From a virus (Duplodnaviria > Caudoviricetes), in the IMG/VR virus record IMGVR_UViG_3300048917_000233, positions 3,368 through 67,367 of that record: a stretch of DNA of 64,000 nt. The stretch is one strand, 5' to 3'. The notes under the pieces are model-generated. The model saw only the letters and a program-made list of their open reading frames with translations. It was not told the DNA's origin and ran no database searches. This document shows positions 2,509-44,362 of this stretch, one piece after another. Each line of letters starts with the position of its first letter. The first letter of the stretch is position 1. A program made the translations under genes and the position numbers.

Positions 2509-3078
2509 ATGATGTACAAGTTATTTGTTGGTATTATTTTCTTTTTTCTTATCAGTTGCGAACAACCGTCTACTAATACTACCGCCTTGGACGAGCAACA
2601 GCATACCGAGCAGAATCAACGCGGCCTATTAGCCACACAGCCGCCACCGACTATTACATGGTCACTGGAACGAGATAATTTAATTAAACGCTTCAAGCTA
2701 CAAAATGATCGTTCTGTTATGTTTTATATGTATGTGTTCGTTGAAGGAGTTGCCGATCCAATTGGCTATTACCAGGTGAATAAAGTCAGTTCTGTAAATA
2801 GTCAACTTACTTGTACTCAACAATTAGTTCAAGGAGATTACGGGGAAAGACGCGGAGATTTTGTAATGGAATCCCCCGCCGAAGACGGCAGTTACGGAAC
2901 TAATGGGAACGGGGTTTTTGGTTTCACTCCTGAAGAAATATACATTGAGCATAATATGAAATATATTGTATCGACGGTGCCCCTCTCTTTTACTAAGCCT
3001 GTAAATCGCCTTACTGTTATTAATCTGGAAACCCAAAAGCAACTTAAAACTTTAATGGACAAAATAAATACAAAGTAA
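2509..3078 (+). CDS. lipoprotein
   Basis: Lipobox FLISC; directly abuts upstream gene. Confidence 0.75.
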   Translation: MMYKLFVGIIFFFLISCEQPSTNTTALDEQQHTEQNQRGLLATQPPPTITWSLERDNLIKRFKLQNDRSVMFYMYVFVEGVADPIGYYQVNKVSSVNSQLTCTQQLVQGDYGERRGDFVMESPAEDGSYGTNGNGVFGFTPEEIYIEHNMKYIVSTVPLSFTKPVNRLTVINLETQKQLKTLMDKINTK

Positions 3079-3079
3079 T

Positions 3080-3325
3080 ATGACTTCACACCACTACCGT
3101 AGACAGTCAATTCATGCTGTTTTATTATGCCTCATTGTTATTATTGCCTTGTTAGCTTCTAGTTGCAGCCCCAAATACACCGGGTGCCCGTCGCATAAAG
3201 GCATGAGCGGCTATGGTTGGCTAAAATGCAGAGAAACCAAAAAAGTATTTATACTGGATAGTAATTGCGGTATAATATGCACTTTTACAGATCCAAAAGA
3301 TATGTTTCACTTAAAATACGAATAG
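3080..3325 (+). CDS. small putative lipoprotein
   Basis: Hydrophobic stretch followed by LASSC lipobox. Confidence 0.55.
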   Translation: MTSHHYRRQSIHAVLLCLIVIIALLASSCSPKYTGCPSHKGMSGYGWLKCRETKKVFILDSNCGIICTFTDPKDMFHLKYE

Positions 3326-3930: not shown

Positions 3931-4299
3931 TCATTGCGAGTCTATATAAAATATTATGATCTGGCTCTTTTTATTTACGGTTGGATAGTTTAAAAACCCT
4001 TCATTTTCTATTAATGCAAACTGTTTGCCGCCGTTTAACCAATAATTCCAATAAGGAGAATTGTATTTCTGCTTTACGCTATCCACCTTAAATGTGCCAT
4101 ATCCATCTACCACAACTGATTTGCTTGTTAGTTTTATTTCAAATGGCACTCCGTACTTAATTGTATCTATCCTCCACGAAAATGTAGTCGTGTCACTTCG
4201 CCAGCCTATTGTATGGACTTCTTTAACATGATAGGCTAGATTTATATTCGGCTGCGAATACCCAAAAACAGGGGCTAATAGGAGCAATAATAACCGCAT
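3931..4299 (-). CDS. secreted protein with Sec signal peptide
   Basis: MRLLLLLLAPVFGYS|Q; DTT, DTI and DSV sequons. Confidence 0.7.
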   Translation of the reverse strand: MRLLLLLLAPVFGYSQPNINLAYHVKEVHTIGWRSDTTTFSWRIDTIKYGVPFEIKLTSKSVVVDGYGTFKVDSVKQKYNSPYWNYWLNGGKQFALIENEGFLNYPTVNKKSQIIIFYIDSQ

Positions 4300-4389: not shown

Positions 4390-4995
4390 CTAAATTATAA
4401 TTGTTTTTGCTCTTTCATAGAACATTTTACGTTGATCGAGTCCATTTACGCCACCATTAACTTTTCTGCTTATATACTCAATGGGATGGATATTTATTAT
4501 TTCATATTTACCATCATCAGTTTTTCTTTTGTAAGGTAATAAGGTCGAATCATCCATATTAGATATTGTCAACAATCCTCTTTCTGTCCAAAATATACAG
4601 GCAGACCAAACTCCCCATTCAGGAGTCGCTAATAACTCTGGATTATATATGAATTTCATCGGCGCTCCGGCTTTCACCCCCATCAAACTATAATTGCGCC
4701 TGCCAGTCACTTGAATTGGCCCCCGTCCCTTAAACTTGATACCATCCCCCTTCGTATTATTACCAAGATCCAGCCGTCCTTCGTATTGTTGGCCCGTACT
4801 ATATTCCTCCATTGCATTAAATGAATCACTTTCATGCGCCAATTGAGCTAAAATATGACACAATTCCCCCTTGGTCTCTATGTCGTATTCTGGGAACCAA
4901 TGATTCATCCAAAGTGATAAACCGGCCAGATTTTTATAATTACTTCTCTTGCTGCCAGGAGCTAGTTTTTTTAAAAAATCTACCGTTATTTCCAT
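4390..4995 (-). CDS. endolysin, glycoside hydrolase family 19
   Basis: HILAQLAHES, EE, GDGIKFKGRGPIQVTGRRNY, SRKVNGGVNGLDQR motifs. Confidence 0.92.
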   Translation of the reverse strand: MEITVDFLKKLAPGSKRSNYKNLAGLSLWMNHWFPEYDIETKGELCHILAQLAHESDSFNAMEEYSTGQQYEGRLDLGNNTKGDGIKFKGRGPIQVTGRRNYSLMGVKAGAPMKFIYNPELLATPEWGVWSACIFWTERGLLTISNMDDSTLLPYKRKTDDGKYEIINIHPIEYISRKVNGGVNGLDQRKMFYERAKTIII

Positions 4996-5675: not shown

Positions 5676-6443
5676 TTAAAATTTTATTGAAAGAGGAAAT
5701 TTAATACTTGCTTCTACCATGTGCCCCTGATTACCATATAGCCAATTGGCCTCATACATTATGTTATATTTTGTTTGATACATAAATCCCCCACCTGCCA
5801 TCTTAGGCCAAGGGCCAAACAAAACATCCCATGACAAATAAAGTCTACCATGAGGTTTTAATTTATCTGAGGCATCCTTGGCTTCTTTAGCCAATGCATT
5901 TATTTTGTTGTAAAACCCAAGTTTCTCGGCATCCAGCTCCTTGAATCTTTTTAAGTAAATCTTATTTTGATTATCCCAATTATTCTGAAGGCTATTTAAA
6001 TCATTCTTGTATCTGAGTGATAAACTCGTGGTGGTTTCTAATTTAGAAAAGCAATCTTCACATTCAACAATGTAACCATGTGGCACAACCGTTGCCGAAG
6101 TATCTGCATACTGAGCTAATCTATGCTCATCAATCAGCTTTTTGTTTTCAACCAATGCTTTATCAAGTTCAAATTCAGTTTGCTCTTTTTGATTTTTTAT
6201 TAAAGCGAGTTGACCTCTTTCAAGCTCCAATGTATCTTGGAAATCTTTAGCAGCACTATCAGATGCGGCTTTATAATCTTTCAAAGCAGCCAATGCGCTG
6301 TCTGCAATATGCTGCGTCTTTTCTCTGGCCGCTACTTCTAATTTGCTTTGGTGGCACCCTTTAAATAAAAGAAACACAAGTAATAATATTCCTAGAATTA
6401 TTCCTGCAAGTAAAAGCGGGTGTATTTTAAGACTTACATTCAT
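5676..6443 (-). CDS. membrane-anchored coiled-coil protein, spanin-like
   Basis: N-terminal TM or possible lipobox (LFKGC), long coiled coil, beta-rich C-terminus; lysis-region context. Confidence 0.5.
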   Translation of the reverse strand: MNVSLKIHPLLLAGIILGILLLVFLLFKGCHQSKLEVAAREKTQHIADSALAALKDYKAASDSAAKDFQDTLELERGQLALIKNQKEQTEFELDKALVENKKLIDEHRLAQYADTSATVVPHGYIVECEDCFSKLETTTSLSLRYKNDLNSLQNNWDNQNKIYLKRFKELDAEKLGFYNKINALAKEAKDASDKLKPHGRLYLSWDVLFGPWPKMAGGGFMYQTKYNIMYEANWLYGNQGHMVEASIKFPLSIKF

Positions 6444-7390: not shown

Positions 7391-7822
7391 TTATTGTTTT
7401 TTAGTGACAACTAGATCATCTTCTGCAACTTTATTAGCAAATTTAGCGGCGAATTTATCAGAAGTCAATACTCCTATATTCTTTAGGAACATAAATGCCC
7501 TATCGAATAATATCCCCTCCCCGATGACTATAGCAATCATCCATTTCATTTCAATATACTCATACTCCATTCTTATCAATAGCGGAATAGCCAATAAATT
7601 TGCCAATAATCTAAACAAATTCGAAGCAAGTAAAAACTTTGTACTCCATTTTTTTGGAGTATTATCACTGGATATATCTCTATTGCTTGCTTCAGCGAAT
7701 AGCGAAGCTGTTGCTGCAAAATAAGCTATAACCAAATACGCTAGAAATGCTCCTAGTGACCCATTACCAAGTATTACATTCCAGAAATCAGGATATTTAT
7801 TCATTATATATAGTTTACCCAT
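7391..7822 (-). CDS. membrane protein, holin-like
   Basis: Three TM segments; start moved to remove overlap with fibre gene. Confidence 0.55.
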   Translation of the reverse strand: MGKLYIMNKYPDFWNVILGNGSLGAFLAYLVIAYFAATASLFAEASNRDISSDNTPKKWSTKFLLASNLFRLLANLLAIPLLIRMEYEYIEMKWMIAIVIGEGILFDRAFMFLKNIGVLTSDKFAAKFANKVAEDDLVVTKKQ

Positions 7823-7845
7823 AAATATTACTTTAGCACAAATAT

Positions 7846-10800
7846 TTAAAATACACCCCAAGCCGATGTTGAAATAGCCATTATTTCTTTTACTTCATAT
7901 TGGGTCGTTAGCGTAAATGAAGTACTCCCGTCTATCGTATCACTACCAGCCCTCTGTATCGTAATTGTATTCCCACTATTATCCATTCGTTTGAATTTGT
8001 AATAAAGACCAACTACACCAGTAGCGGCTGGCAACGTAACCGTTACATTCCCCGATGTAGCATCTATAAGATAAACATAAGCCTGAGTATTAGCTGTTGT
8101 GTTAGAGGTTATTGTTAATGCTTTATAAAACACAGCACCGCCCGCTTGCAATATACCTACATACGTATTATTCCCTGTAGCGTACAAGGGAATAGTTGTG
8201 GGAACTGATACGCCTAACCCTACATTATTATTCGTATCTATGTAAACCCCCGGACCTTTAGTAAAAATAGTTGGCGTTGGAGTATATCCTAATTCCAAAA
8301 ACTTATCGCTGCCTAATCCTGAAGCCATAGAATAAACATGCGTACCAGTTGGATTAGATAATAATACGCAACTCGAATTTATGGCGTAATTAAATATCCC
8401 ATTGAATGTCAAGTTATGACTAGCTCCTGTTACCGTTCTATTCCCCGCCAATGTGCCGTCTGCATTATATATATTAGTAGCGCTTATTCCAGGCACGGCA
8501 GCTTTCTTAATATTACCACTATCATCCATGTAAAGCATGTTAACTGGCGTCCCTATACTATCGGCTTTTGCATTTATATTACCATTTACCGAAAGTTTTT
8601 CTGTACCTACTAAAGCTGATCTGTTAATCATCACAGCATCTGAAAATCTAGCCATAGAATTAACCTGAAATGGAGCCGACCCAGTAACTGTATTACTACC
8701 AACAACTACAAAAGGAGACAAGCCAAATCCTAGATTCAAATTAATACCAGTCGCCGCCGTTCTGTCATAACCAACAAGCACTGCTGTAGAAGATGCAACG
8801 CCGATCTCAGCAGCTGCACCAGCGTAACCCGTCCCAGATAAAAATCCCGTAAACCTACCAAACTTGCTGTTAACGCCACCCGATGACACTTGCAATAATT
8901 CATCTGTTCCGCCCGATGGAGTAGTGGTATTAATCATTACCGGTTCGCCGAGGAAGTTTAATGACAAGGGTTTGGGCGCTGATGCATCTCTGTCATAGCC
9001 GAATATTACTCCCTTCCCGCCTATATAATCTATTTCAACACCCTCGCCGGTTAACCCGCTTGGTGAACTACCAGTAGCACGTAGCGATGTACCTTTGATC
9101 ATACCGTTTACCTGTATTACTTCAACCGCTGTTGGGGATGTAACATTACCAAAGTAACCTCCACCTACCAAACTAATAGATGCCCCCTGTGGCGTGGGAA
9201 GAGTCGTGCTATTTTGTATTATTTGATCTTTTGAATACCTGATCACGTTACCAGTACTGTCTTGACCTATAACAACGCTTTTATACGTAGCAGTATCTGA
9301 GTTTCTTAGCTTTAACCGCTGAAATTCTACGTACCCATTTATTGACATGTTCTGATCCGTACTCATAACAGAATCGCCAATTTCTTTATAAATTGAATTA
9401 ACGTACACATACGCTCCATAATCATTTGGGTGTATCCCATCGACAAGCAAATTAGTAGGATTTCTATATAATTCAGCCGAATAAATATCAACCCACTTTG
9501 TGCCTTTCGCAATAGCAATACTATAGGTAGCGCCTCTAAATTTCTGCTGCTTGGCTAACGTGCTCGTAGGGAATGCAACAGGATCTATGTATGACGGAGC
9601 CAATATTACTATTCTACTTGCAGGCCATCCACGTGCTATAACAAGCGTATCTATGTATTTCCTATACGTAGTATCAAACGCCGTAGAATCAGTCCCTGCA
9701 TTATTTATGTCATTTACGCCCCACTCTAAAACTATCCATCTATACTTAGCCCGGCTAAAAACAGGGAGCGTTGGGATATTTGCCACGCCCTGATTTAGTA
9801 AGGTGGCACCACTGATCCCCGCATTAGACTCTATAGAGTTTAACTTATTAGACAATACAGTAGAGTACCTATTCCCGGTAGTTTGACCTACCCCAACCGT
9901 GATAGACGTACCCCTAAAGTGAACTGAATCTGCATTGTACGGGTCTTGATTTATTCGCAAATTCAACAATCTTGCACTATCAACAACGATAGTATTTGAT
10001 GTTTTATCATAAACAAACCCGGCATCTCCACCAAATGAACCGGCATCATTGAATTGAACTTGGGTATTGCTGCCTCCTGGCGAGCCACTGCCGCCAGTAG
10101 AATTAATTGTCTGATTGGGCCACGAGCCCGTAATGGTCACATTAGTTCCCGCCACTAATGATGGCGATGAAGTCCCAGTACCTCCATTTGCAATAGGCAA
10201 TATGCCAGTAACATGCGTTGTCAAATCAATTTTACCCCACGAAGGGGCAGTCCCAACGCCCCCGGATATTAAAGCATTTCCAGTTGAAACATCTGCTAAT
10301 TTACTCCATGTATTTGATGCGCTACCATAAAGAAGATCGCCGGTTGTCACCGTATTTTGCCCGGTGCCTCCGAACGTTGGACCTATTGTGGTTCCATTCC
10401 ATACTCCGGTCCCTATAGTCCCCAATGTAGTTATAGAGGTTTGCCCAACATACGTAGCAGCAATATCCACAACAGGAGTTGTAGTCGGATTGATTACGGA
10501 AATTCTATTGGTAGTCCCAGATACACTTGTAACAGTCCCCCCACCACCTCCTCCTCCAGCACTATCCAGAATAGCATGCTGAGTCCCATTTATCTTAAAA
10601 TAAATACTATCAATCCCGGGTATTCTAAATATCGTATCGACTGCTGGCCCTCCCGGTGGATTTCGAAGAGATATTAATCCAGCCCCATTATCTGTAAAAT
10701 CGCTATTATTGAATGTGGCCGCCCCCTTGGTGCCTGTATTATTTGCATCAGGAATACTTATTCCGCCTGTAGTTGAATTGTATACTATTGGCGAAGTCCC

Positions 10801-11460
10801 AGACAATAAACTTCTTACTTTCAAGTAAAAATTAGGAATCATTCCGGTATCTGTAGTAGCCACGGTTCCATTAGCTCGTACATATTGCGTAGATAACCCC
10901 GGCATAGTAACATTTAATGTGCCGCTTGTTGTTATAGGAGAACCGCTAACAGAAAAAGCAGACGGCATAGATAACGCAACACTTGTTACGGTTCCAGACC
11001 CTCCACCGCCACCACCGGATGAACGGCCTAATATCTGAAATGTGTATGGGCTTCCTTTAATTGTATATCCTACAGTAGAATCATTCACGCGATACATAGT
11101 ATCTACTAATCTTGTTGATTGCGCCAACCATTTGCCGATAGTATCAGTAATATTTAGTTTTAGGTTTATTCTATTGCTTAAAGAAGCCGTATCCCGATTT
11201 AACAGGCCGCGAAACCAGAGATGCCCCCCTGCACTAAACCAGAAAGCAGTATCACCCCCTTGTATTCTTACTAATTGTGTTCCTGGGTAACGCGCATTAA
11301 ATGTGTCAAGTATTGGATTAACTACGGGACTGTCTAAAATAATCCACGAAGCCTTTGTATTACCATTAAATATTCTTGAAGGGAATGTGCTACTAGGCAA
11401 TTGCGCCTTTGCTGCTATCCCGATACTAAAGAATAATAATATATATATTATGTATTTCAT
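7846..11460 (-). CDS. tail fibre/spike-like protein with SGNH esterase domain and N-terminal signal peptide
   Basis: Fibre motifs GTVTSV, TLGTIGTGVWNGT, ILPIANGGTG and C-terminal DATSGNVTVTLPAA; SGNH blocks GTSIT, WGVND, DGIHPN; MKYIIYILLFFSIGIAAKA|Q. Confidence 0.8.
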   Translation of the reverse strand: MKYIIYILLFFSIGIAAKAQLPSSTFPSRIFNGNTKASWIILDSPVVNPILDTFNARYPGTQLVRIQGGDTAFWFSAGGHLWFRGLLNRDTASLSNRINLKLNITDTIGKWLAQSTRLVDTMYRVNDSTVGYTIKGSPYTFQILGRSSGGGGGGSGTVTSVALSMPSAFSVSGSPITTSGTLNVTMPGLSTQYVRANGTVATTDTGMIPNFYLKVRSLLSGTSPIVYNSTTGGISIPDANNTGTKGAATFNNSDFTDNGAGLISLRNPPGGPAVDTIFRIPGIDSIYFKINGTQHAILDSAGGGGGGGTVTSVSGTTNRISVINPTTTPVVDIAATYVGQTSITTLGTIGTGVWNGTTIGPTFGGTGQNTVTTGDLLYGSASNTWSKLADVSTGNALISGGVGTAPSWGKIDLTTHVTGILPIANGGTGTSSPSLVAGTNVTITGSWPNQTINSTGGSGSPGGSNTQVQFNDAGSFGGDAGFVYDKTSNTIVVDSARLLNLRINQDPYNADSVHFRGTSITVGVGQTTGNRYSTVLSNKLNSIESNAGISGATLLNQGVANIPTLPVFSRAKYRWIVLEWGVNDINNAGTDSTAFDTTYRKYIDTLVIARGWPASRIVILAPSYIDPVAFPTSTLAKQQKFRGATYSIAIAKGTKWVDIYSAELYRNPTNLLVDGIHPNDYGAYVYVNSIYKEIGDSVMSTDQNMSINGYVEFQRLKLRNSDTATYKSVVIGQDSTGNVIRYSKDQIIQNSTTLPTPQGASISLVGGGYFGNVTSPTAVEVIQVNGMIKGTSLRATGSSPSGLTGEGVEIDYIGGKGVIFGYDRDASAPKPLSLNFLGEPVMINTTTPSGGTDELLQVSSGGVNSKFGRFTGFLSGTGYAGAAAEIGVASSTAVLVGYDRTAATGINLNLGFGLSPFVVVGSNTVTGSAPFQVNSMARFSDAVMINRSALVGTEKLSVNGNINAKADSIGTPVNMLYMDDSGNIKKAAVPGISATNIYNADGTLAGNRTVTGASHNLTFNGIFNYAINSSCVLLSNPTGTHVYSMASGLGSDKFLELGYTPTPTIFTKGPGVYIDTNNNVGLGVSVPTTIPLYATGNNTYVGILQAGGAVFYKALTITSNTTANTQAYVYLIDATSGNVTVTLPAATGVVGLYYKFKRMDNSGNTITIQRAGSDTIDGSTSFTLTTQYEVKEIMAISTSAWGVF

Positions 11461-11461
11461 A

Positions 11462-12040
11462 TTATACTGCGACTAATTGAATCATGTGAAAATTAAACAA
11501 CCATTCGTTCTGCACGGGGTTGCTAAACACCACTACCACATTAGTTGGATTGTATGTTGCCGTAAAGCTAAATTGGAGGGCATCGCCATAAGGCACTTCA
11601 TTCCCATCTAATGTTATTTCTAGGCTAGGGTTAACTACCCCGGCATAATTAAACGTTATTTGAGTATCTCCAGCATTCATCAATGCGCCTGGACGGCCTA
11701 CTCTGAATTGTGGATTGGGAGTTGCTATTGTCACGTTGCCTCCTGTTGTTGGATTAATGATATTACCAGTATTACCACTATTAAGAATAATCTTAGCCTC
11801 GCGAATGTATCTGCCACACAAATCATATAAATACAAACTAGTGTCATTTATACTTTCGGCGGTGCTATCAATACCATTCTTCCATTCAATAGACTTCCGG
11901 ACAAGTTCTATTAACCATGAAAGATTTGGTGCCTTGTCTCCTCCACGGAATAGCATGTTTTGAGAAATCCTATCAGCAGCCAAAAACTGGCTTATTTTCC
12001 CATAATTCAAATATGTTACTGTTGGTACGAAAATGCCCAT
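11462..12040 (-). CDS. putative virion protein (fibre attachment/hub-like)
   Basis: Between ejection genes and fibre; helical N-terminus and beta-rich C-terminus. Confidence 0.55.
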   Translation of the reverse strand: MGIFVPTVTYLNYGKISQFLAADRISQNMLFRGGDKAPNLSWLIELVRKSIEWKNGIDSTAESINDTSLYLYDLCGRYIREAKIILNSGNTGNIINPTTGGNVTIATPNPQFRVGRPGALMNAGDTQITFNYAGVVNPSLEITLDGNEVPYGDALQFSFTATYNPTNVVVVFSNPVQNEWLFNFHMIQLVAV

Positions 12041-13115: not shown

Positions 13116-16100
13116 TTAACGAGTTTTGTGTGTACTATGTGATGTTTTGTGTTTTGTCGTTTTATGCCCTCCAACAGAACCTGTTGCGCCAGCCCCTCCG
13201 CCAGAACCTCCCTTCTCCTTACCTATAATACCAGTTTCTTTTAATATTTGCGGCTCAAATCTTCTCTTTACATCCTCCTCCAGCTTCTTAGCCTCATATG
13301 GGTTATTGAATGCGCCAATAGTATGTGCTATGGTTTCAACCACGGGTATTTGCTCTGTAAGAGCGCCTACGCTTGCCAGTCCAGCTTTTTCAATAGATTC
13401 AGGAGTAGAGGCATGTTTGTTTTCCCTGTAATTATCGTACACCCTTCTCGCTGTTGCCGCAAACTGAATTATTTCTAGCGGCAAAGCGTGCTGAACAGGT
13501 TTTGGTATCATCTTGCCGCCTACAGACATTTCATCAGAAATCAAATCCCCCTGATCGCGTTGCTTATTCGGGTTGAACTTGCTATAAAGTCCCCCAAACT
13601 GAGAATACCCATACCAGCCTATTAGCCACAATGCAGTTCCCAGAGTTCCTTGCTTCAGTTGACGCATTACTGAATCTGCTTCTTCAGGCGCAAGACTTTC
13701 AATCCCTTTTCGATACGCGTTGATTACGTCCACACCGCCTTTTATTAATCCAAAAGGAGATGTACTAACCATTCTACGAGCAATATTAGTAGGTACAGTA
13801 CTCACAGGGATCATAAAATCTGCCAAGAATTTATAGGTTGCCCCTATATTACCTGACGCCTCCATATCATGCTTCCATTCACCAAATCTCTTAGACAACC
13901 AGTTCTGCTCTTGAAATATCTCATATTGCGCTCTTTTATACGCGGCAGTCTCTAATGATTGCAATACCAAATCATCATTTATATCCAGCCCATTCCTTTC
14001 AGCCCATACTAATGCATTCTTTAGGGATGCCTCATAAACACCTCTTTTAAGAGGATCTTTAATTACTTGGTGTAAATCTGTAGGCAAGTACAGCCCCGGT
14101 ATATGTTCATAAGTACCTGGAGAGAATTTTTTACTAAGAGGCGATTCGCCGCTTTTCAAGATTTCCCATGAATTTTTTACAAATTTCTTAGGGTTGAAAA
14201 ATTCTTTATAGAACTTAGCCTCAGCCCCAGCATTAACAAACCCCTCTATTGGAGCCTTCTCAGCTACCCCCTTAAAGGCATGCCCATATATAGCGCCTAT
14301 CATTTGTTCCGGAATACGCTTTGCGGCTCCTCCAATAGTAGCAGCGGCAGCTAATTTCCCCAATACATTGTACCCGCTTAATACAGATAATCTAACACCT
14401 CTGCCTACCCACATTAATGCCTTTTGATACATGTTTTTCTGTGACTCAAATGCTCTCCTTTTCTCTATTCTTATTTTATAGTTGGCGTTTACAATTCGTT
14501 GCTTTTCTTTTAATATCTCTTCACTAAATGGGGTTTGTTTTTTTTCAGCAGGGAGCAAATACTTTTTATTCTTATATCTACTTTCCAGTCCCTTTCTTCT
14601 TTGTTGCAGTTTTTTTATTTCCTTTTGCACATCGGTTGTTAATATATCCTTTGCTGCGACTATAGCTTCTTTATTTTTTTCTCGTATATTATTTAGCCGA
14701 CCTCTTAAATCTTGCAATTTTTTATTTTTCTCTTGTTTTTTCTGTGGCGTGTCTTCTTCCATTTTGGTAGCTTCTGCAATTTTAGTCCACAAGTTAGCCT
14801 CAGTTCTAAAATCACGCAATCTTTGAGCAATTGGAGAAATAAGACCTTCTTGCTCCTTATATTTACCTGCAAGCAAGTTTACAATATCCGCCTTTGTTAT
14901 GCCGTCCAGTTCATCCTTCAGAACATCATGCAATCTATTAATTACTTCTTCTGTTTTTTGCACACCCTCTTCAGCATAACTCTTTATTAATTTGAATATT
15001 TCTGGAGTTATGGAAATAAGCTCTTTAGCAAATGGAAGAGGGACAGCAGTTAACCCGCTTTCGCCAGTTCTGCCTTTCTTAAGTTTATCAAGAATATCCT
15101 TCTTTATTTGACTTCTTTCTGCTTTAAAATCAGTAGATGTCTTCTTTGTATTTTTCGGCGCTCCTTGTTTCTTGACCGTATCTTCCGCAGCTTTATTCTT
15201 TTCTTCGGCCTGAAGTTTAGCCAATTTATTAAGCGCCTCATCTCTTTCCTTTAATGCGCGATCTAGTTTAGCCTGCACATCTTTTGGTATTTTACCACCA
15301 TACGCATCTTTTATAGTAGCTAAATCTCTACTAGCATTAAAACCATTATCGGTAACTATTTGTCGAATATTACCAACATCCGACCACGCTTTACCACTAA
15401 TAATATTAGCCTGCGTCGCTGCATCTATTTCATCAGATAATTGCTGCAATTGCTCATTTAATTCAGCCTTCTCTGTATCCGCGGTAGCATTTGCCAATCT
15501 TTCCCGCAGGTTAGTATCATGCTGCGCCAATTGATGCATATAATACAACATAGCCTTTGCCTCATCTGGCTGCATCCCTTCTTTAGTGTCCAAAATCCGG
15601 TTAACAATATCTATCGGATTAATCACGCTATTATCCACTAAACTTTTACCCTCCAAAAGCACTTCCTGATCCGTCCCCAGTTTACCTACCTCAACCGGTG
15701 GCAGCTTCCTTTCAAATCTGGTAGCCTTAGATATTATGTTCTTAATGCCAGTTTTTTTATCTCCCGGCTCCTCGATGAATGGCAATTCATACACCTCGTC
15801 AATTTTCAAATCAGCTACCCCTTCTTTACCCGTATTTTTACCTTCTTCTTTGAGTTCTCCTCCGACTTCTTCTCTGGGAGTGCTTTCGGGTTGGATGTTT
15901 CCTGCGCCCATTCCTTCGCCATCTGTGGTTTGTTGGCGAACATCCATTTCATTTGTGCTTTCGACTGGAACGGCATGTGATAATTCTTTATTTGTTATAA
16001 AATCTTTTGTTGTTTCATCAGTCCATTTACCACCTGTTTTTGACAAGGCATCGAGTGCCCTCATCACCTTACTATGACTTACTACATGGGTATCTTCTGG

Positions 16101-18797
16101 CAATGACTTCACGTATTCATAAGCCTTCTCCATTCTTGTCTTGAAACTCTCAGGAGACTCAGCGCCATCCGGCATGTATTTGCCCTCAAACCATTCTTTC
16201 TCTTTGAATGTTCCCTCTGGTTTACCTTCGTCGCTTCCAATGTTAGCTGTATTCAGTAATTCATTCCGCTCAATAGGCACTTCTTTACCGGTTATTCTTT
16301 TTGCTTCTTTAGCTGCTTCTTCAGCAGTTTGAAGCCCACGCTCTACCTCACTCGTTATTATTTTACTCTTATTATTTTCTGCTATGTATTGACCCAATTG
16401 TTTAGCCTCTTTCATCCCATCTTCGGTTAATGGAGATGGGCCTATCCCGTTTTCTTTACCGGCAGCGGTTTTTGCATCTTCTCCATGCTCACTCACCTCT
16501 ACATGGCCTACCTGCTCTGCATTAACCTTCCCCGCGCCCGCTTCCCCCGGCATAATAACCGAAACGTTCTTTGTAGATTTTACTTCTCTTGGCTGCTCTC
16601 TTGGGGCAATAGTTCTTACTTCAGGACGTTGTATTTCTCCTGGCTGAATCACTGATATTTTTGATTCTGCAACTTCAGGCGCAGGGAACAAATCCTTAGC
16701 ATAATCCACTACCGTTTCACCGTAATTATCCTTAACCGCTTGCTCATCTAATGGGTTAGCCAATGGCTTCCAATTTTCATCTCTATTTTGGGCCTGCTGC
16801 GCGATGGTCTGCCAGAATTTTATTGGATCTTTTTTGACTTCGGGGCCATATGTATCTGGCAGAATACCTTCGTCAACAAGTTCATGAGCAAAGTCAATAG
16901 CTTCCTTCTCTTTATCCTTACTTAATCCAGATACGAGTTTTTCTTGCTTAACCGTTTCTTTGGATAAGGCTAAATTTTCATCAACTAATTTATCAATCTG
17001 TTCTTTTATTGGCCCTTGTAATGATTTATGTGTTGCTTCTTTGCGCTGCTCTAATTCGGTTATTTTATCAATATTATCCTGAATCTTAAATCTGGCTTCT
17101 TCGGTTACATTAGGTGGGATTTGTGCATCTTTCTCTTTATATTCTTTTATCTCATTAAATGCCTGATTAGCCGCATCCTGCGTTATCTCACCAGTAGCAA
17201 CTTTTTCTTGCAAGGTTGAATTAATAGCTTCTTCAGGAACATTTTTAGTAAGCCCATTGAGAATAGTCTTATAGTTTATTTTGCTAAGACCACGGCCAAG
17301 TTTTAACGCAGCACCAATGCCTCCCGCCATGATAGCGTTACCATAAAAGGCATCAGCAGCACCGGCATCCCAATCTCTTTTGATACCCGCAGCTTGAGCT
17401 AACTTATTCTTCGCTATTTCTCCAGCAGCACCTAAGCCGCCCTGAGCCGCCGCATCAAGCGCAATTTTCCCAAATTCAACCCCGTTATTTTTAAGGAACT
17501 GCCCAACTGCTTTTTGATACCCCAAGTTGAATGTTGCTCCATTGATGGGTATTTCTGCAATCTTAGCTCCAATTAACCCCTGAGCAGCGCCTACCACAGT
17601 CCCTATTTCTTGGGCATTCTCGGCTTGGTTCCTGGCTTCATTCAAAGCCTCAAATTCCGGCCTTCCCTGATCCCGCAGTTCATTATATACCTGTTTGAAG
17701 GTTGCCCTATACTGGGCCTTTCTGTTTTCGTATGCCAAAAGTGAAGCAGCGGCTGCTGTTCCTAACTCCGGGTTACCAATAAACGTGCCCCCAACAGTTC
17801 CGGCAACTCCGGCCACTATTGGCGTTATTGGCATTTCAGCAATAGTATTTAGCGCCTCATTTAATTTACCTCTTGGTACTTTTATCGGCTGATCAACATC
17901 TGGATTATTTCGCTCATTCTCCAGCTCCATGATAACAGCAGCATCATTAGAGGTGTTCTTTAGAAAATCATGTTCCTCATCAGCTTTAAATTTATTCTTA
18001 ACCCCCTCTATGATAGAACCAACCATCCCCATAGGCTGAACTACGGCCTTAGTCTCCGGATCGTATACATATGTGCCTTTCTTTATGCCTTTCGCAACTT
18101 CATTAATTTTCTCTATTCTCTTATGGGCATTGGGGTCTGGATCGTTGGCCAGCTCATTGAATTTATCTACTTGATATGCACTTTCGGCCACCTCCTTGTC
18201 ATTCAAATCCTTTATGAATTTTCTTGACAGCTTAGGAGTAAGTATTGTACCTGTCTTAAAATCAGTTAATTCATCGCTTGTCACAGGAAGATTATACAAT
18301 CTTTCTTTTTCTCTTTGCAGAGCCTTTTGTTCGTCTTGCGGAGAAAGAATTATTCCTTTTTGTTTATACTCATTCCTAAGTGATTCTACAGTATAATTAT
18401 CCCTTCTGCTTTCTCTCAATTTCTTTTCATACTGAGCGTCGTTGCCAACTAAGGCTGTATTGACTTTTTCATGAGCTACTTTAGCCCTCCCCTGCTGTCT
18501 CTGTAGCTCATATGTTTTTTCGTCTGGGATATATTTAACTTCACCCTGTGAGATGTTTATTTTTTCATTTGGCGCAGATGGCACGACTACTGGCTCTCTT
18601 GGTATCGACCTAAAAGTAGGATCTAATAATTGAAATGCTGGCTGCTCTTGTTTAGGCTGTTGGGATGCACGTAATTTAGCCTCTAACCCTAATGGGTCAG
18701 CTTTTGATTTTAGTTGCGCCAATTTCTTTTCTAGCCCTAATGGATCAGGATCACCAGGCCCACCTATTTGGTCATATGTCGCTAATTCTTCTGCCAT
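13116..18797 (-). CDS. large internal virion/ejection protein containing a histidine phosphatase-like domain
   Basis: 1893 aa, helical, Gly/Ala membrane-like segments; EHG...LTEDG...SEVERGLQTA...GAES...R...VSHSKVMR block at about 16040-16510. Confidence 0.75.
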   Translation of the reverse strand: MAEELATYDQIGGPGDPDPLGLEKKLAQLKSKADPLGLEAKLRASQQPKQEQPAFQLLDPTFRSIPREPVVVPSAPNEKINISQGEVKYIPDEKTYELQRQQGRAKVAHEKVNTALVGNDAQYEKKLRESRRDNYTVESLRNEYKQKGIILSPQDEQKALQREKERLYNLPVTSDELTDFKTGTILTPKLSRKFIKDLNDKEVAESAYQVDKFNELANDPDPNAHKRIEKINEVAKGIKKGTYVYDPETKAVVQPMGMVGSIIEGVKNKFKADEEHDFLKNTSNDAAVIMELENERNNPDVDQPIKVPRGKLNEALNTIAEMPITPIVAGVAGTVGGTFIGNPELGTAAAASLLAYENRKAQYRATFKQVYNELRDQGRPEFEALNEARNQAENAQEIGTVVGAAQGLIGAKIAEIPINGATFNLGYQKAVGQFLKNNGVEFGKIALDAAAQGGLGAAGEIAKNKLAQAAGIKRDWDAGAADAFYGNAIMAGGIGAALKLGRGLSKINYKTILNGLTKNVPEEAINSTLQEKVATGEITQDAANQAFNEIKEYKEKDAQIPPNVTEEARFKIQDNIDKITELEQRKEATHKSLQGPIKEQIDKLVDENLALSKETVKQEKLVSGLSKDKEKEAIDFAHELVDEGILPDTYGPEVKKDPIKFWQTIAQQAQNRDENWKPLANPLDEQAVKDNYGETVVDYAKDLFPAPEVAESKISVIQPGEIQRPEVRTIAPREQPREVKSTKNVSVIMPGEAGAGKVNAEQVGHVEVSEHGEDAKTAAGKENGIGPSPLTEDGMKEAKQLGQYIAENNKSKIITSEVERGLQTAEEAAKEAKRITGKEVPIERNELLNTANIGSDEGKPEGTFKEKEWFEGKYMPDGAESPESFKTRMEKAYEYVKSLPEDTHVVSHSKVMRALDALSKTGGKWTDETTKDFITNKELSHAVPVESTNEMDVRQQTTDGEGMGAGNIQPESTPREEVGGELKEEGKNTGKEGVADLKIDEVYELPFIEEPGDKKTGIKNIISKATRFERKLPPVEVGKLGTDQEVLLEGKSLVDNSVINPIDIVNRILDTKEGMQPDEAKAMLYYMHQLAQHDTNLRERLANATADTEKAELNEQLQQLSDEIDAATQANIISGKAWSDVGNIRQIVTDNGFNASRDLATIKDAYGGKIPKDVQAKLDRALKERDEALNKLAKLQAEEKNKAAEDTVKKQGAPKNTKKTSTDFKAERSQIKKDILDKLKKGRTGESGLTAVPLPFAKELISITPEIFKLIKSYAEEGVQKTEEVINRLHDVLKDELDGITKADIVNLLAGKYKEQEGLISPIAQRLRDFRTEANLWTKIAEATKMEEDTPQKKQEKNKKLQDLRGRLNNIREKNKEAIVAAKDILTTDVQKEIKKLQQRRKGLESRYKNKKYLLPAEKKQTPFSEEILKEKQRIVNANYKIRIEKRRAFESQKNMYQKALMWVGRGVRLSVLSGYNVLGKLAAAATIGGAAKRIPEQMIGAIYGHAFKGVAEKAPIEGFVNAGAEAKFYKEFFNPKKFVKNSWEILKSGESPLSKKFSPGTYEHIPGLYLPTDLHQVIKDPLKRGVYEASLKNALVWAERNGLDINDDLVLQSLETAAYKRAQYEIFQEQNWLSKRFGEWKHDMEASGNIGATYKFLADFMIPVSTVPTNIARRMVSTSPFGLIKGGVDVINAYRKGIESLAPEEADSVMRQLKQGTLGTALWLIGWYGYSQFGGLYSKFNPNKQRDQGDLISDEMSVGGKMIPKPVQHALPLEIIQFAATARRVYDNYRENKHASTPESIEKAGLASVGALTEQIPVVETIAHTIGAFNNPYEAKKLEEDVKRRFEPQILKETGIIGKEKGGSGGGAGATGSVGGHKTTKHKTSHSTHKTR

Positions 18798-25895: not shown

Positions 25896-26537
25896 TTATA
25901 TTTGTTTTAAATTTTCTTCTTGCCCATCATTAACTGAATCTTGTGGATTCATTCTTTCTTTCATGCACTGGGTAAATATATGATCCCGAATCATCGGTAT
26001 ATAATCTGGCGGCACATTCAACTCAGAATTTAAGTTTGTCACATCACCGCCACTAATCACTTTCACTGTTGCTGTATATTGGCTAAGTATTAAGGGGGTT
26101 TTAGCTCTCACAACCTTCCCTTCCGGCAGATACATTATTTTATTTATAATTGGTGGCATGCTATCAAAATACCCCCATTGATTGATGCTTAAAGGTATTG
26201 CAGGTAAAGATGTAAATCCATCTGCCTTAAATCTCAACTCCGCTATGCCCATATTTGCGCTTATACCTACCGGTATTTCTGGCAGCGTAAACATCCAACA
26301 TAAATTATCAGTTGAGTCTTGTGTTATAGCGATCCCAGAATAGGTAGTATAAAACCCGTTATTGACATACCCAACGCCGTCTAATTGAATGGCTGATTTA
26401 TAGGCGGCCTGAGCGGCCAACGCTATTCCTTCTTGAAGATATAAATTGCATAAATTATATGTAATCTCAGAATCGTCAGTTGGTTTACCGCCGTAAATCT
26501 GCATTAAAACCGATTCTATTAATGCACCTCGTATCAT
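25896..26537 (-). CDS. tail ring/adaptor protein
   Basis: C-terminal ELNVPPDYIPMI adaptor-like segment; position. Confidence 0.6.
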   Translation of the reverse strand: MIRGALIESVLMQIYGGKPTDDSEITYNLCNLYLQEGIALAAQAAYKSAIQLDGVGYVNNGFYTTYSGIAITQDSTDNLCWMFTLPEIPVGISANMGIAELRFKADGFTSLPAIPLSINQWGYFDSMPPIINKIMYLPEGKVVRAKTPLILSQYTATVKVISGGDVTNLNSELNVPPDYIPMIRDHIFTQCMKERMNPQDSVNDGQEENLKQI

Positions 26538-38068: not shown

Positions 38069-38242
38069 TTAATGTTTATTATTTTTAATTCTCCATACTA
38101 CCATGACCTCATGATAAATACCCCACTTTTCTAAAGTGCTGTCTCCGGGTATTCTTTTGGAGAATAATATTCTTGAATCCGTACCCATAACGTCACAAAC
38201 AACTCCCAAAGGAGTAAACCAATATTGATAACAAACAATCAT
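38069..38242 (-). CDS. small hypothetical protein (57 aa, absent from ORF track)
   Basis: ATGA overlap with the GT stop; MIVCYQYWFTPLGVVCDV...KNNKH translated by hand. Confidence 0.55.
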   Translation of the reverse strand: MIVCYQYWFTPLGVVCDVMGTDSRILFSKRIPGDSTLEKWGIYHEVMVVWRIKNNKH

Positions 38243-39048
38243 GAGTTAAATATTTTTTCAACATAATACTCCAAGGATCGCTGAGTAAGAAAATCATAGA
38301 ACCCAGGGCCACTGCCAATTACATTTGGGATGGAATTGCAGACCTCTAAGACGCGAGGAATCTTCAATCCTTCGGCTACTTGGAATATGCTAGATTGGCC
38401 GCCAATGTAAACTTTACAATTATAAAGGGCAGTTGCGATCTCTAAGTAATCGGCAGCTTCTAACCTTTGAATATCCAGTTTGTTTTGCTTACAAAATACT
38501 TCATGCTCATTCGGCAATCCCACAAACATCACTTTATCTCCATACTGCTTTAAAAAGTTATAACTTACCAGCATGTTATTGTAACGTTCGGTACGGTTAA
38601 CAAGGATTTTACCTATTACTCTTTGGTCTATTTTATAAGGCACATTCAGCCACTCCTTACTTAAATCAGTAGCCATATCAGCCCATATGTACATCGGCCA
38701 ACGGTTTATGCACCCACCTGGCATTGTAGTTGCGCCTTCCCTAAGCAAGTCAAAATTGAAATCAATGCGCTCCCCATCCCATTCACGGAAATCTTCAATA
38801 TAATCCTGAGCTAATAAAAGGGGGCGTAGCGCCTTCAGCGTCGGGGAGTTCATCATTACCGGCTCCCCTTCTTCATTAAAGATAGAATATTTTGCTCCAA
38901 GATAAGCACCCGCCACCCCATAAGGCTGGTTAACTCGTTGATATATAATCCATTTGCAGTCATTATCTTTTGCGACCTGTTTCAATCCCGGTAGAATTGA
39001 TAGAAGGTCCCCTGCGGGGAAGCTGTGTAAAATCGTCGCTATTTTCAT
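38239..39048 (-). CDS. GT-B glycosyltransferase (GT9/heptosyltransferase-like)
   Basis: SFPAGDLLSILPGL N-motif and YIGGQSSIFQVAEGLKIPRVLE C-motif; start moved to 39048. Confidence 0.7.
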   Translation of the reverse strand: MKIATILHSFPAGDLLSILPGLKQVAKDNDCKWIIYQRVNQPYGVAGAYLGAKYSIFNEEGEPVMMNSPTLKALRPLLLAQDYIEDFREWDGERIDFNFDLLREGATTMPGGCINRWPMYIWADMATDLSKEWLNVPYKIDQRVIGKILVNRTERYNNMLVSYNFLKQYGDKVMFVGLPNEHEVFCKQNKLDIQRLEAADYLEIATALYNCKVYIGGQSSIFQVAEGLKIPRVLEVCNSIPNVIGSGPGFYDFLTQRSLEYYVEKIFNS

Positions 39049-39051
39049 TTT

Positions 39052-39067
39052 GCTCAAACGTTGTAGC
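39052..39067. promoter_or_regulatory. third copy of 16-bp operator in divergent intergenic region
   Basis: GCTACAACGTTTGAGC on minus strand. Confidence 0.6.
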
Positions 39068-39142
39068 TTTTTTGTACTTTTATGCCGTCCCCGGATTTGC
39101 ACCCGGTTAGACCCATTTGTTAACAATTTAAATTTTAAAGTC

Positions 39143-39415
39143 ATGGCAATGACAGGTCGTGTTATTTTTCACGGGTACAGAAAAAATCAATATGATTTAA
39201 AAAACCTTGCTGGCGGCCCTGCTACACAAGGCGTTCCACAAAACCTACCCGCTAATTTATGCTCAATCAGGCCAGTAGATCAGGCCACTACAGCCAATGG
39301 AGTAACTATGAACTCCATTATTGAACTTCTTCCGCCAGGTTTGTACAAAAACGGTCAATCTACTCTTTATTACAGCGCAGATACCGTTGCAACTTTACAA
39401 ACAAACGGCACCTAG
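39143..39415 (+). CDS. small protein, lone plus-strand gene (putative virion protein)
   Basis: A/T-rich start context, 90 aa Thr/Gly/Asn-rich, own terminator downstream. Confidence 0.75.
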   Translation: MAMTGRVIFHGYRKNQYDLKNLAGGPATQGVPQNLPANLCSIRPVDQATTANGVTMNSIIELLPPGLYKNGQSTLYYSADTVATLQTNGT

Positions 39416-39436
39416 TTTTTCACAGGTTCAGATTTT

Positions 39437-39949
39437 TCATGGGTTATCCCTAGCGATTAATTTCGCTGGGGATTTTTTCTTTCCCAATCTGCCAAGTTTT
39501 GATAAATCAACAGGCTGTTCCATTGCTCTTATTATCCCCCATTTTTTGATTCTTTTCCCCAGCGCTACATCCGACATACCTAACAGTTTAGCCCAATCTG
39601 TAATTATTCTTTTCTCTCCATTATATTCTATTATATTACTATCTGTTCTTTTACGCATATTCTCATCACCTGTAACAAACATACATGTATCAGGACTATA
39701 TATTTTCCCGCTCCCCTTAATATCCTTATCAAGTTGTAATCCCTTTTCCCATCCATTACTTATAGCCCACCTATAAAATGCTATAAAGTCAGTTTTCCAT
39801 TCATCACAAACAATTACACCAGCCCCGCCATACCATTTATAATTATCAGATCGTGATTTATAGCATCTATCCATCATTAGATGCCACAACTTATATACTG
39901 GATGTTTGGATAACCCATGTGTTTTTTGTCGCCCTACTAGCTTCTTCAT
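39437..39949 (-). CDS. HNH-type homing endonuclease-like protein
   Basis: HGLSKHPVYKLWHLMMDRCY...YGGAGVIVCDEW...LDKD...YSPDTCMFVT...N. Confidence 0.8.
   Translation of the reverse strand: MKKLVGRQKTHGLSKHPVYKLWHLMMDRCYKSRSDNYKWYGGAGVIVCDEWKTDFIAFYRWAISNGWEKGLQLDKDIKGSGKIYSPDTCMFVTGDENMRKRTDSNIIEYNGEKRIITDWAKLLGMSDVALGKRIKKWGIIRAMEQPVDLSKLGRLGKKKSPAKLIARDNP
39446..39482 (+). terminator. Rho-independent terminator for the inverted gene
   Basis: 11-bp stem ATCCCTAGCGA/TCGCTGGGGAT followed by TTTTTCTTT. Confidence 0.7.
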
Positions 39950-39950
39950 A

Positions 39951-40727
39951 TCAACTCCTTTTTTTAGCCCATTCTTTTATCAATGGGGGCAGTTCGCCTG
40001 TTATAGGAATAACATCTTGCTTATCAAACCACTTCCAAGGATCGAATACATCCATTCCTTCTAGCTTACTATCAACTCCACACTTGAATATATTGCCTTG
40101 CATCTCCCTGATCTTAGCTGGGTGTACTTCGCGTTTACGCACAAAACCCATATGCCAAATTTTTATCTTATCGAGGTAGCTATCAACGCAAGGAGCGGCG
40201 ATTGATTCCGCATCGTCGTATGCCCTGTAGCAGGTCTTTGTTAGGCGAACTATCTCGGTAGAACAAGGCAACCTGTGATGCGGAACATTAAGCTGGGCGT
40301 ACGGCGATCCCCACAAATTTATACGTTTGCACAAATATCCTTCCTGCCCTTCATCCATTGCTCTTCTTACCCATTCATAACTACTTGGGTCTAAAATTTC
40401 ATCTGATTGAAGATTGAATACATAATCTGTATCCAGCATTTCTATGGCATAATTGGTATAAATTGAAAGTCTGTGTTTAGTTTGAAAGCCCATTTTTAAC
40501 CAATCCGCGTCCTGCATTACTCTCACATAAAGCTGTCCACTTCTTATTGCTAATTCAAACGTATTGAAAATGTTGTATGATGTATTATCCCCATCCTGTG
40601 CAGTTGGCACCACACACACTACAACCTTATCACAAAATTCAAGTAGGCATTGGATTGATTGTATATAACAATAATCTAAAATATCACCATTTCGGATCAG
40701 GAGTGATCCACCAAGGCTTTTTGCCAT
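39951..40727 (-). CDS. GT-A glycosyltransferase (GT2-like)
   Basis: CDKVVVCV, DGDNT, DYVFNLQSDE (DxD-like) and IWHMGF motifs. Confidence 0.75.
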   Translation of the reverse strand: MAKSLGGSLLIRNGDILDYCYIQSIQCLLEFCDKVVVCVVPTAQDGDNTSYNIFNTFELAIRSGQLYVRVMQDADWLKMGFQTKHRLSIYTNYAIEMLDTDYVFNLQSDEILDPSSYEWVRRAMDEGQEGYLCKRINLWGSPYAQLNVPHHRLPCSTEIVRLTKTCYRAYDDAESIAAPCVDSYLDKIKIWHMGFVRKREVHPAKIREMQGNIFKCGVDSKLEGMDVFDPWKWFDKQDVIPITGELPPLIKEWAKKRS

Positions 40728-40730
40728 ATA

Positions 40731-41384
40731 TTATTTCTTTTTAAGTAAAGCAACATAAAATCCCCTCCACCACTCTTCGTTTCTATGCTGATCTTCGGTA
40801 TATGGTTCCGCATTCAGTAATTCCTCTTGAAATAATATTTCACACCCGCTATCAACAATGCCATCTATTGTCCCACGCTTTACTTCACCATACTGCCAAT
40901 CATCTACGCAAACGATAAATTCATTAGCCATTGAGGGTAGAAAATGTGTCATAGCTTTACGCTGGGCCTCATATCCATGATCTGCGTCAAAGCAATACAA
41001 ATCCACTTCATCGGCAAAGTTAGGCGGCAGGTCAAATGTTTCAGATACTTCTCCCAGCAACACCGTATCCGTTCCATCAATACACTTCATGGCATTTTGG
41101 ATGAATTGCTCTTCGACATTTTCGCCCGTTATTTTATCAGAAGCGAAACTATCGCCCCAGTAGGCTACTTCAATGTTAGGATTATTCCTTAATACAGAAC
41201 AGAAGATACCCCCTTTATGGGTTCCGTGCTCCATGTAACGCGTTGATAATGAACCTAAATTATTCATTAGATGGCGCAGCTTGATCGAAGAAAGTGCCGG
41301 TACATCCCATGCTACTTGATCCATTTTAGATTGATGGTTCTTTGCTCGTTGAATTGCGTCTTTTATTTGCTCGATTTTATCCAT
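40731..41384 (-). CDS. class I SAM-dependent methyltransferase (Methyltransf_24-like)
   Basis: YMEHGTHKGG motif I, DLYCFDADHGYE, IVCVDDW. Confidence 0.8.
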   Translation of the reverse strand: MDKIEQIKDAIQRAKNHQSKMDQVAWDVPALSSIKLRHLMNNLGSLSTRYMEHGTHKGGIFCSVLRNNPNIEVAYWGDSFASDKITGENVEEQFIQNAMKCIDGTDTVLLGEVSETFDLPPNFADEVDLYCFDADHGYEAQRKAMTHFLPSMANEFIVCVDDWQYGEVKRGTIDGIVDSGCEILFQEELLNAEPYTEDQHRNEEWWRGFYVALLKKK

Positions 41385-41817: not shown

Positions 41818-42091
41818 ATCTCATAATGGTTCGCAGGTCTTCTTTAGTTTTAAGGAATCCATAAAAACGAGTTTCTGAGTTTTCCCATTCATTGTAATCG
41901 CAGTCTTCATCTACTACATTAATCATTGCTTGGTATAAATCATCATCAAATAAAAAGAACCCCATTATCCATTCATTGCCAACTTCATCTGTTAGTGAGA
42001 ATGTTTCTACTTGTTTTTTTATTGGGCCATAGATTATTTGTTTTGTATCTCTATCCTGCCATCCGCGCTCGTATAAGTCTTCATATATCAT
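41795..42091 (-). CDS. hypothetical protein
   Basis: ATGA-coupled acidic ORF. Confidence 0.6.
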   Translation of the reverse strand: MIYEDLYERGWQDRDTKQIIYGPIKKQVETFSLTDEVGNEWIMGFFLFDDDLYQAMINVVDEDCDYNEWENSETRFYGFLKTKEDLRTIMRFVDILGY

Positions 42092-43515: not shown

Positions 43516-44351
43516 ATGTATCCCCATTTGAAGCCGCCCGCAGTTATTAACTTATTTCTACAAACAGCACCTATATGTGTTCTATGAACTCCTGTCTCAG
43601 ATTCTGCGATTCCTGCATTTGCGTAGGTTTTTATATAATTACCATTAATATCATATTGATTCACTTTTTTGCTCTGTGGGTGTCCGTCTCCTGCACCATA
43701 GGGTTTTATAATACCTACATTATCATCCCCATCGTACCTCCACTGATAATTTCCATGACTCCCATTTTTAGTTCTCGCAACTTTTGCAATACTGGTTTGA
43801 CATAACCCGGTCTCCCTTGCAGCTTCGCGTGTCCCCGCATATTCTTTAAGACAATTCCCGTTTAAATCATATTGCTTTATTTTTTTACTCTTATGATGGA
43901 GTGAACCAAACTTACCGAGCATGCTTTTGATCTTATTTTTATCAATTAACCCAATTTCATAGGCATGCTTTCTGTTTTCGCTAACTGTGTTCCACTCTAA
44001 CTGATGCACTCTATTGTCCGTTTTCACTCCTTTCTTATGATTTACTTCTGGCTTATTTTCCGGATTTAGGATGAACGTTCTTGCAATTAATACATGCGTA
44101 TTGATTAATTTTTTTTCTTTGCATTTGTTAAAAACAGTTACAAATAGATATCTCCCGTCGCCATCAAAGTTTTGCCTCATTATTTTGATCTTGTCCCACC
44201 TTTTGTGCTTGCCTAATGTTTTAATTCTACCAAATGTACTTGCCTCATAAAAGCCTTCGTATTGGGGGATAGATCTCCATTCCTCAACATACAAAACACC
44301 TTCGTGAACTTCGGATAAGTTCTCAAGCGACAGATTTTTCCAATGTGCCAT
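43512..44351 (-). CDS. NUMOD4-HNH-NUMOD1 homing endonuclease
   Basis: [48 protein letters not shown], two NUMOD1-like C-terminal repeats. Confidence 0.9.
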
Positions 44352-44362
44352 AAAAAAATACA

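Follow-up and report, generated by a model that had tools for sequence, protein, structure and literature searches.

The window analysed here is a 64-kb stretch of a single 67,367-base virus record (IMGVR_UViG_3300048917_000233), whose genes include a large terminase, a portal and several proteins matching 'virion structural protein' PHROGs. The gene in question is an open reading frame (ORF) on the minus strand at 7846–11460, which encodes P0001, a 1204-amino-acid (aa) leader-bearing tail-fibre/esterase protein with 630 homologues sharing its N-terminal 330 aa. Its ATG is located at 11458–11460, one base after the TAA of the upstream gene (11462–11464), and the ORF is unable to start further upstream because an in-frame TAG stands at 11473–11475, five codons 5′ of the ATG. 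This TAG and the conserved M-K start rule out a mis-called start. Codons 1–19 (11404–11460) specify a predicted Sec/signal peptidase I (SPase I) signal peptide, MKYIIYILLFFSIGIAAKA, and Gln20 (11401–11403) is the predicted new N-terminus. P0001 is the last large gene ahead of the holin-like and endolysin genes. The initial annotation of this locus had described the leader (basic n-region, hydrophobic core, A-x-A and +1 Gln), the upstream TAG and the position before the lysis region, all of which our analysis confirms. As set out below, the data suggest that this host-recognition fibre probably matures in the periplasm rather than in the cytoplasm.

Following the leader, P0001 comprises a mature N-domain (residues 21–146; 11023–11400), a Gly-rich linker, a module at approximately residues 157–265 (10666–10992), more Gly-rich linkers, an esterase domain (residues 517–682; 9415–9912) and a conserved C-terminal module (residues 955–1204; 7849–8598), all on the minus strand. 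Specifically, the 157–265 module is the most conserved fibre module and also occurs in many leaderless phage fibres. The SGNH/GDSL esterase domain scores 59.8 bits with Pfam PF13472, above the curated cut-off of 32.9, with the catalytic residues of block I (G-T-S519), block III (N583) and block V (D674-x-x-H677) all present. The C-terminal module of ~250 residues is common to approximately 40 of 119 homologues, and its last ~95 residues are predicted to form a beta-sandwich with a predicted local distance difference test (pLDDT) score of 85–97. In Foldseek, this tip matches T4 gp9 (1qex), T4 gp10 (5iv5), CBA120 TSP4 and T4 gp34 at a probability of ~1.0, and viral tail-fibre and minor tail proteins superpose on it with a root-mean-square deviation of 1.4–1.8 Å over ~96 aa. 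An AlphaFold2 model of residues 1–330 built from 27 sequences has a mean pLDDT of 53.8, too poor for searching. Across the family, the homologues hold the N-end and exchange their C-terminal Pfam domains, which include SGNH, SASA, BNR_2 (BNR sialidase), Pectate_lyase_3 and Laminin_G_3. A build of this kind, constant at the N-end and exchanged in the enzymatic part, is usual for receptor-binding proteins.

The N-terminus of P0001 displays the anatomy of an export leader. It consists of the n-region MK(Y), the h-region IIYILLFFSIGIA of 13 hydrophobic residues and the c-region A-K-A, followed by Gln at +1, and agrees with a Sec/SPase I substrate in every feature considered, namely a basic n-region, a hydrophobic h-region of 7–15 residues, small residues at −3 and −1, and Gln at +1. 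The +1 Gln is the Q-rule of Bacteroidota SPase I substrates, associated with pyroglutamate formation (PMC5837995, PMC10653852), and cyclisation to pyroglutamate is expected at Gln20. The initial annotation had made retention of the signal by homologous fibres a check on its proposal, and they do retain it: the leader, defined by the h-region, small residues at −3 and −1 and the Gln, is present in 114 of 121 proteins with the same N-terminal 330 residues, and the seven leader-less homologues begin within the leader or are fragments, probably as a result of truncated gene calls. M1 and Q20 are shared by all 27 sequences in an alignment of diverse members. Position −1 is A, S or G in 112 of the 114 homologues (family profile at −1: A 86, S 19, G 5; at −3: A 47, V 40). 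The pattern that is kept comprises K at position 2, hydrophobic residues from −15 to −7, a G/S helix breaker at −6, A/V at −3 and A/S/G at −1. Because this pattern is kept although leader pairwise identity is only 32% across the family, the segment appears to evolve as a working signal peptide. In line with this conservation, a profile of the mature N-domain found 711 proteins among 1.84 billion representative proteins; in the best 150 of these matches, the domain starts at residue 20–25 whenever it is N-terminal, and none of the 150 is a leaderless version. Among 82 newly found representatives (≤50% identity), a clear leader with Q directly after it is seen in 64, and the others mostly look truncated. 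Taken together, these findings show that the leader exists and is under selection, and the sequence patterns make it very likely that P0001 is exported by Sec.

Several other readings of the leader were considered and rejected. A lipoprotein processed by signal peptidase II is not compatible with the cleavage region, which reads AKA↓Q and has no lipobox Cys, the sole Cys of P0001 lying far downstream; with a single Cys, a need for the periplasm via disulfides is likewise excluded. P0001 is not a cargo of type IX secretion (T9SS) either, since it has no sorting domain (TIGR04183, TIGR04131 or PF18962). Specifically, NCBIfam gives no match at E ≤ 1 over the whole of P0001, Pfam gives no relevant match at E ≤ 10 over the last 155 aa, and no T9SS C-terminal domain is found among the fold matches, which bears out the initial annotation on this point. 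The leader would be buried if a frameshift or readthrough fused the upstream 192-aa gene with the fibre, but such a fusion is rejected because the spacing and frame of the two genes vary among relatives, from a 4-nt overlap through abutting genes to the same frame with a 9-nt gap.

A second line of evidence comes from O-glycosylation motifs. In Bacteroidota, an O-glycan attaches at D-(S/T)-(A/I/L/V/M/T) in non-cytoplasmic proteins, where this sequon is nearly always used, and engineered copies of it become glycosylated (PMC12871550). P0001 carries 18 sequons, compared with 4.8 ± 2.0 expected from shuffles (z 6.6). Over 119 homologues, the sequon ratio is 2.83, while five control motifs, including the reversed and N-for-D versions, give 0.8–1.2 and an E-for-D motif gives 0.5. 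The ratio is 5.08 in the shared N-terminal 330 residues, with five conserved sequons in the N-domain of P0001 (D70, D90, D106, D120 and D127), and 2.06 in the unrelated variable parts. In these variable parts, the third sequon position favours L/I (also T/V) and avoids G/P, matching the published glycoproteomes (PMC12871550). Within the phage, five proteins exceed z 3, namely the fibre and the products of 3931–4299, 5676–6443, 45604–45903 and 25896–26537; four of the five have leader- or transmembrane (TM)-type N-termini, the exception being 25896–26537, and enrichment is absent from the 1893-aa, 1297-aa, capsid and portal proteins. In 13 related loci, proteins with a leader- or TM-type N-terminus have 2.96 times the expected sequons and all others 0.75 times. 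The fibres that contain the 157–265 module divide in the same manner: those with a leader followed by Q (n = 14, with at least five unrelated N-termini) have a ratio of 2.92 and every z ≥ 2.9, whereas those with ordinary cytoplasmic N-termini (n = 45) have a ratio of 0.59 and none has z > 0.7; although these 14 and 45 rows are not phylogenetically independent, the separation is complete. The fibres of cultured Flavobacterium elemo phages are leaderless and show no sequon enrichment. Taken together, presence of the leader goes hand in hand with a motif that functions only outside the cytoplasm. O-glycosylation, which the initial annotation had not connected with export, is the most specific rationale for export that the data offer, and P0001, judged by its motifs, is likely to be glycosylated by the host O-glycosylation system.

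These results bear on the view that the N-terminus is not an export signal, being instead an uncleaved membrane tether or a structural helix with the fibre staying on the cytoplasmic side. Cleavage is so far predicted from sequence, which leaves room for such a view, and the helix that AlphaFold2 places at residues 2–16 is uninformative. However, the short h-region, the helix breaker at −6, the small residues at −3 and −1 and the invariant +1 Gln constitute the Bacteroidota SPase I signature (PMC5837995), and it is precisely the fibres with a leader that are enriched in a motif used solely in non-cytoplasmic proteins. We therefore regard a non-exported fibre as very improbable.

Further observations concern sequons and glycans in this phage and its relatives. 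The exceptional protein at 25896–26537 (minus strand) is a leaderless 213-aa structural-module protein with 3 sequons versus 0.6 expected (z 3.5). Five leader-bearing fibres (P0200, P0201, P0209, P0214 and P0219) repeat a unit like DTxSLSNRINLKLNISDT up to 39 times in tandem; each unit has two sequons, and P0001 holds one such unit. With up to 61 sequons in 2151 aa, these five proteins look like heavily glycosylated shafts. At 42088–43527 (minus strand), with neighbours at 38239–41384, a DUF5672/glycosyltransferase-9 fusion adjoins a methyltransferase. The fusion is kept at 42–87% identity in four of five related phage records that also have leader-bearing fibres, and it could remodel the fibre glycan or host surface glycans. 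A NUMOD1/NUMOD4 homing-endonuclease-like gene (43512–44363, minus strand) lies between the glycosyltransferase cluster and the early genes.

The genomic setting of P0001 is that of a fibre gene. Upstream, and on the same strand, lie P0122 (11462–12040), a 192-aa leaderless protein found at the same place in relatives, whose stop ends 1 nt before the fibre ATG, and P0123 (12040–12570), a 176-aa leaderless protein that is syntenic in relatives. Directly downstream, a multi-TM holin-like protein (7391–7861, minus strand), recognised from its sequence and without a family match, overlaps the fibre stop. In divergent relatives, the gene order is fixed as a giant protein, three small leaderless proteins and the fibre gene, the last of which usually precedes membrane and lysis genes. 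In this phage, the giant virion-type protein (13116–18797, minus strand) has 1893 aa and a histidine-phosphatase (His_Phos_1) domain at residues 771–915, and all relatives have homologous giant proteins of 1700–2700 aa ahead of their leader-bearing fibre. In 8 of 8 genomes, the subtypes of the fibre N-domain and of the 176-aa protein (MFTG.. or MAFNG..) go together, whereas the giant protein subtype does not follow them, so the small upstream genes and the fibre N-end seem to travel as one module. A complex prediction for the 192-aa protein with fibre residues 20–150 scored 0.00 and gives no verdict. Altogether, the architecture, fold and synteny support the assignment of P0001 as a receptor-binding tail fibre.

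The host of the phage may be placed at the level of phylum. The terminase has 85 matches among cultured records at 24–27% identity, of which 84 are phages of Flavobacteriia (Flavobacterium, Cellulophaga and Maribacter) and one is an uncultured Caudoviricetes record. Because of these relatives and the Q-rule of the leader, we infer that the host is a member of the Bacteroidota. A scan of genome contigs for the host found only two tiny contigs from metagenome-assembled genomes, which are uninformative, and the Bacteroidota promoter motif TAnnTTTG is not enriched in the window (57 matches versus 82 expected). Searches of cultured phages with the whole gene (megablast) and with the N-terminal 330 aa and the module at 151–270 (tblastn) gave zero matches.

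Among the terminase relatives, Cellulophaga phage phi18:3 (24.6% identity) provides an experimental analogue. Just upstream of its endolysin, gp085, gp086 and gp087 have leaders ending in GYS↓Q, VSA↓Q and LNA↓Q, respectively, and each record carries the note 'annotation based on experimental MS/MS proteomics analysis' (MS/MS, tandem mass spectrometry). The first 118 residues of gp086, including the leader, are 82–83% identical in short-tailed and long-tailed Cellulophaga phages, and genes for gp086 homologues in other Cellulophaga phages are annotated as structural or as pectate lyase. Purified particles have thus been found to contain leader-bearing tailspike-like proteins, which raises the odds of virion membership for such proteins, and we lean towards P0001 being a virion component. 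As for the exported fibre proposed by the initial annotation, export has strong backing from the conservation of the leader, the Q-rule and the coupled motif; architecture, fold and synteny speak for the fibre role, as do, through analogues, the Cellulophaga MS/MS records.

Export alone does not place P0001 on the particle. It may instead be a secreted or periplasmic fibre-shaped enzyme that deacetylates the surface glycans of the infected cell, thereby blocking superinfection or preventing progeny from sticking to debris, with another protein, such as the 1297-aa nozzle-like one, binding the receptor. The export and sequon evidence applies equally to such an enzyme; the consistent presence of the leader ahead of the N-domain among the best 150 profile matches is as expected for an extracytoplasmic function; the mosaic adhesive trimer (MAT) fibres of Bdellovibrio, which are cell-surface proteins, are laid out in the same way; and the 1297-aa protein matches a virion-protein PHROG. 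On the other hand, a constant N-end joined to exchangeable enzymatic C-ends marks out receptor-binding proteins of virions, the 67-kb genome revealed no second fibre-like gene, in every relative the gene lies behind the internal-protein genes, where the fibre gene belongs, and leader-bearing tailspike-like proteins are annotated in the virion proteomes of cultured relatives. A purely non-virion enzyme is thus unlikely, though it deserves consideration.

A combination of both roles is conceivable as well, in which a late, non-exported precursor with its leader uncleaved joins virions classically and the exported, glycosylated pool is a free enzyme. This arrangement would reconcile virion proteomics with classical assembly, and it has a precedent in the free and virion-bound depolymerase pools known in other phages. 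However, a conserved leaderless isoform made from an internal start finds no support, since a Met occurs within 40 residues after the cleavage site in only 30 of 112 homologues and residue +2 is variable across homologues. Moreover, a trimer that kept its hydrophobic leader in the cytoplasm would be prone to aggregation or to capture by Sec. The sequons are densest in the N-domain (5.08-fold), which suggests that this domain, too, is selected in its exported form. We consider two such pools improbable.

We therefore favour a single exported and virion-bound fibre and propose the following route. The fibre precursor would carry a cleavable Sec/SPase I leader and be exported by the host Sec system, signal peptidase I would cut after AKA (A19↓Q20), and Gln20 would be cyclised to pyroglutamate. 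In the periplasm, where the fibre would fold, the host general O-glycosylation system would decorate many of the 18 sites, while fibreless heads and tails would assemble in the cytoplasm. Once the holin opens the inner membrane, the compartments would merge and the fibres would dock on the particles. The endolysin (4390–4995, minus strand; PHROG 181 endolysin, E 2.4e-38) is leaderless, as read from its N-terminus, so the holin must open the inner membrane; that docking happens only once the membrane has been opened is pure inference. Formation of a fibre after Sec export is feasible, because Bdellovibrio Bd2133 (residues 21–1031), one of the phage-like fibres of ~1000 aa, made fibres with a PelB leader (PMC10769870).

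For the whole chain, that is, an exported, glycosylated receptor-binding fibre that joins particles after the holin opens the inner membrane, we estimate a probability of roughly 45%. Several points weigh against it. The call of the leader and of export is drawn solely from sequence patterns, and the host phylum solely from terminase relatives and the Q-rule itself. The sequons are densest in the very domain expected to dock on the tail, where heavy glycosylation might hinder docking. The phi18:3 proteins gp085–087 are not sequon-enriched (each 1 observed versus ~3 expected), so export and glycosylation are separable, and their MS/MS annotation is silent on export or cleavage of the virion copies. 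Additionally, the closest cultured terminase relatives, the elemo phages, use leaderless fibres.

The fibre is not the only phage protein with an export signal. Five more small proteins carry one, encoded at 1626–1997, 2509–3078 and 3080–3325 on the plus strand and at 3931–4299 and 45604–45903 on the minus strand, two of them with lipoboxes (LISC and LASSC). The leader of the 3931–4299 product ends in GYS↓Q, and this protein has 3 sequons versus 0.2 expected and is conserved in relatives (L003 and L001). The 255-aa product of 5676–6443 (minus strand), present in every relative, has an N-terminal TM segment, a conserved [KR]-G-C, a long coiled-coil-like region and 3 sequons; it looks like a spanin or lipoprotein, and no family match was found for it. 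In another phage type, locus L019 (9308–14501) encodes proteins of 829, 302 and 534 aa in series, all with a leader followed by Q, after a giant protein of 2720 aa.

Extended beyond this genome, the proposal is tentative. It would mean that in a large, mostly uncultured group of Bacteroidota phages, receptor-binding fibres, once exported by Sec and trimmed by signal peptidase I, mature in the periplasm, coated with O-glycan and capped with pyroglutamate, and that the particles become infectious only after a holin-driven merger of compartments; possibly, conserved phage glycosyltransferases remodel the host O-glycan on the fibres. If so, virion assembly would span two compartments and hinge on when lysis occurs. 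The host range and stability of the phages would be tied to host genes for Sec, glutaminyl cyclase and O-glycosylation, which would be new targets of resistance and co-evolution, and recombinant fibres and engineered phages produced in E. coli would miss modifications that may be needed for function. The cultured Cellulophaga phages, which already have mass spectrometry data, offer a direct test of the idea of an exported fibre.

Comparison with known systems places P0001 between several of them. The classical leaderless fibres and tailspikes of podoviruses (the T7 gp17 position; Flavobacterium elemo) share with P0001 the position after internal virion proteins and a modular build, and many leaderless fibres share its 157–265 module; unlike P0001, they have no leader and no sequon enrichment (0.59-fold), and they assemble in the cytoplasm. 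In the textbook view, the virions of tailed phages assemble wholly in the cytoplasm. Benler et al. (2018) likewise described a common view of phage proteins as lacking signal peptides, whose absence was used as an argument for phage origin (PMC6199706), and no description of Sec-exported tailed-phage fibres was found in the literature searched. The Q-rule proteins of Porphyromonas gingivalis prophages (Matrishin et al. 2023) resemble P0001 as phage-encoded SPase I substrates with +1 Gln and were read as an adaptation to the host secretion system; they differ in being genes of unknown function, capsid proteins and spanins, with tail fibres unmentioned (PMC10367356).

Closer likenesses are offered by the Cellulophaga phages and by Bdellovibrio. 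The Flavobacteriia podovirus phi18:3 has a 227/499/1935-aa layout that parallels the 220/499/1893 of this phage, and its gp085–087 resemble P0001 as MS/MS-annotated structural, tailspike-like proteins with a leader and Q beside the lysis genes (gp086 is a pectate lyase in RefSeq), having homologues in phi46:3, phi10:1, phi19:1 and phi19:3. Unlike the P0001 family, they are free of sequon enrichment and show no detectable sequence similarity to P0001; no published discussion of their leaders was found in the literature searched. The MAT fibres of Bdellovibrio bacteriovorus (Caulton et al. 2024) share with P0001 a signal peptide, a ~130-aa N-domain that is conserved and rich in beta structure, a phage-like shaft (trimeric in MAT fibres and presumably in P0001), swapped tips and, by our proposal, folding outside the cytoplasm (PMC10769870). 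Distinct from P0001, they are encoded by a bacterium outside any phage structural operon and are displayed on its own surface, and a Foldseek comparison of Bd2133 with P0001 (E 1.2e-2, probability 0.30) establishes no homology. Against this background, a two-compartment assembly route with host-made glycosylation would, if true, be new for tailed phages, and P0001 is a new member of the phage fibre and esterase families, set apart by its conserved export signal and its sequon load.

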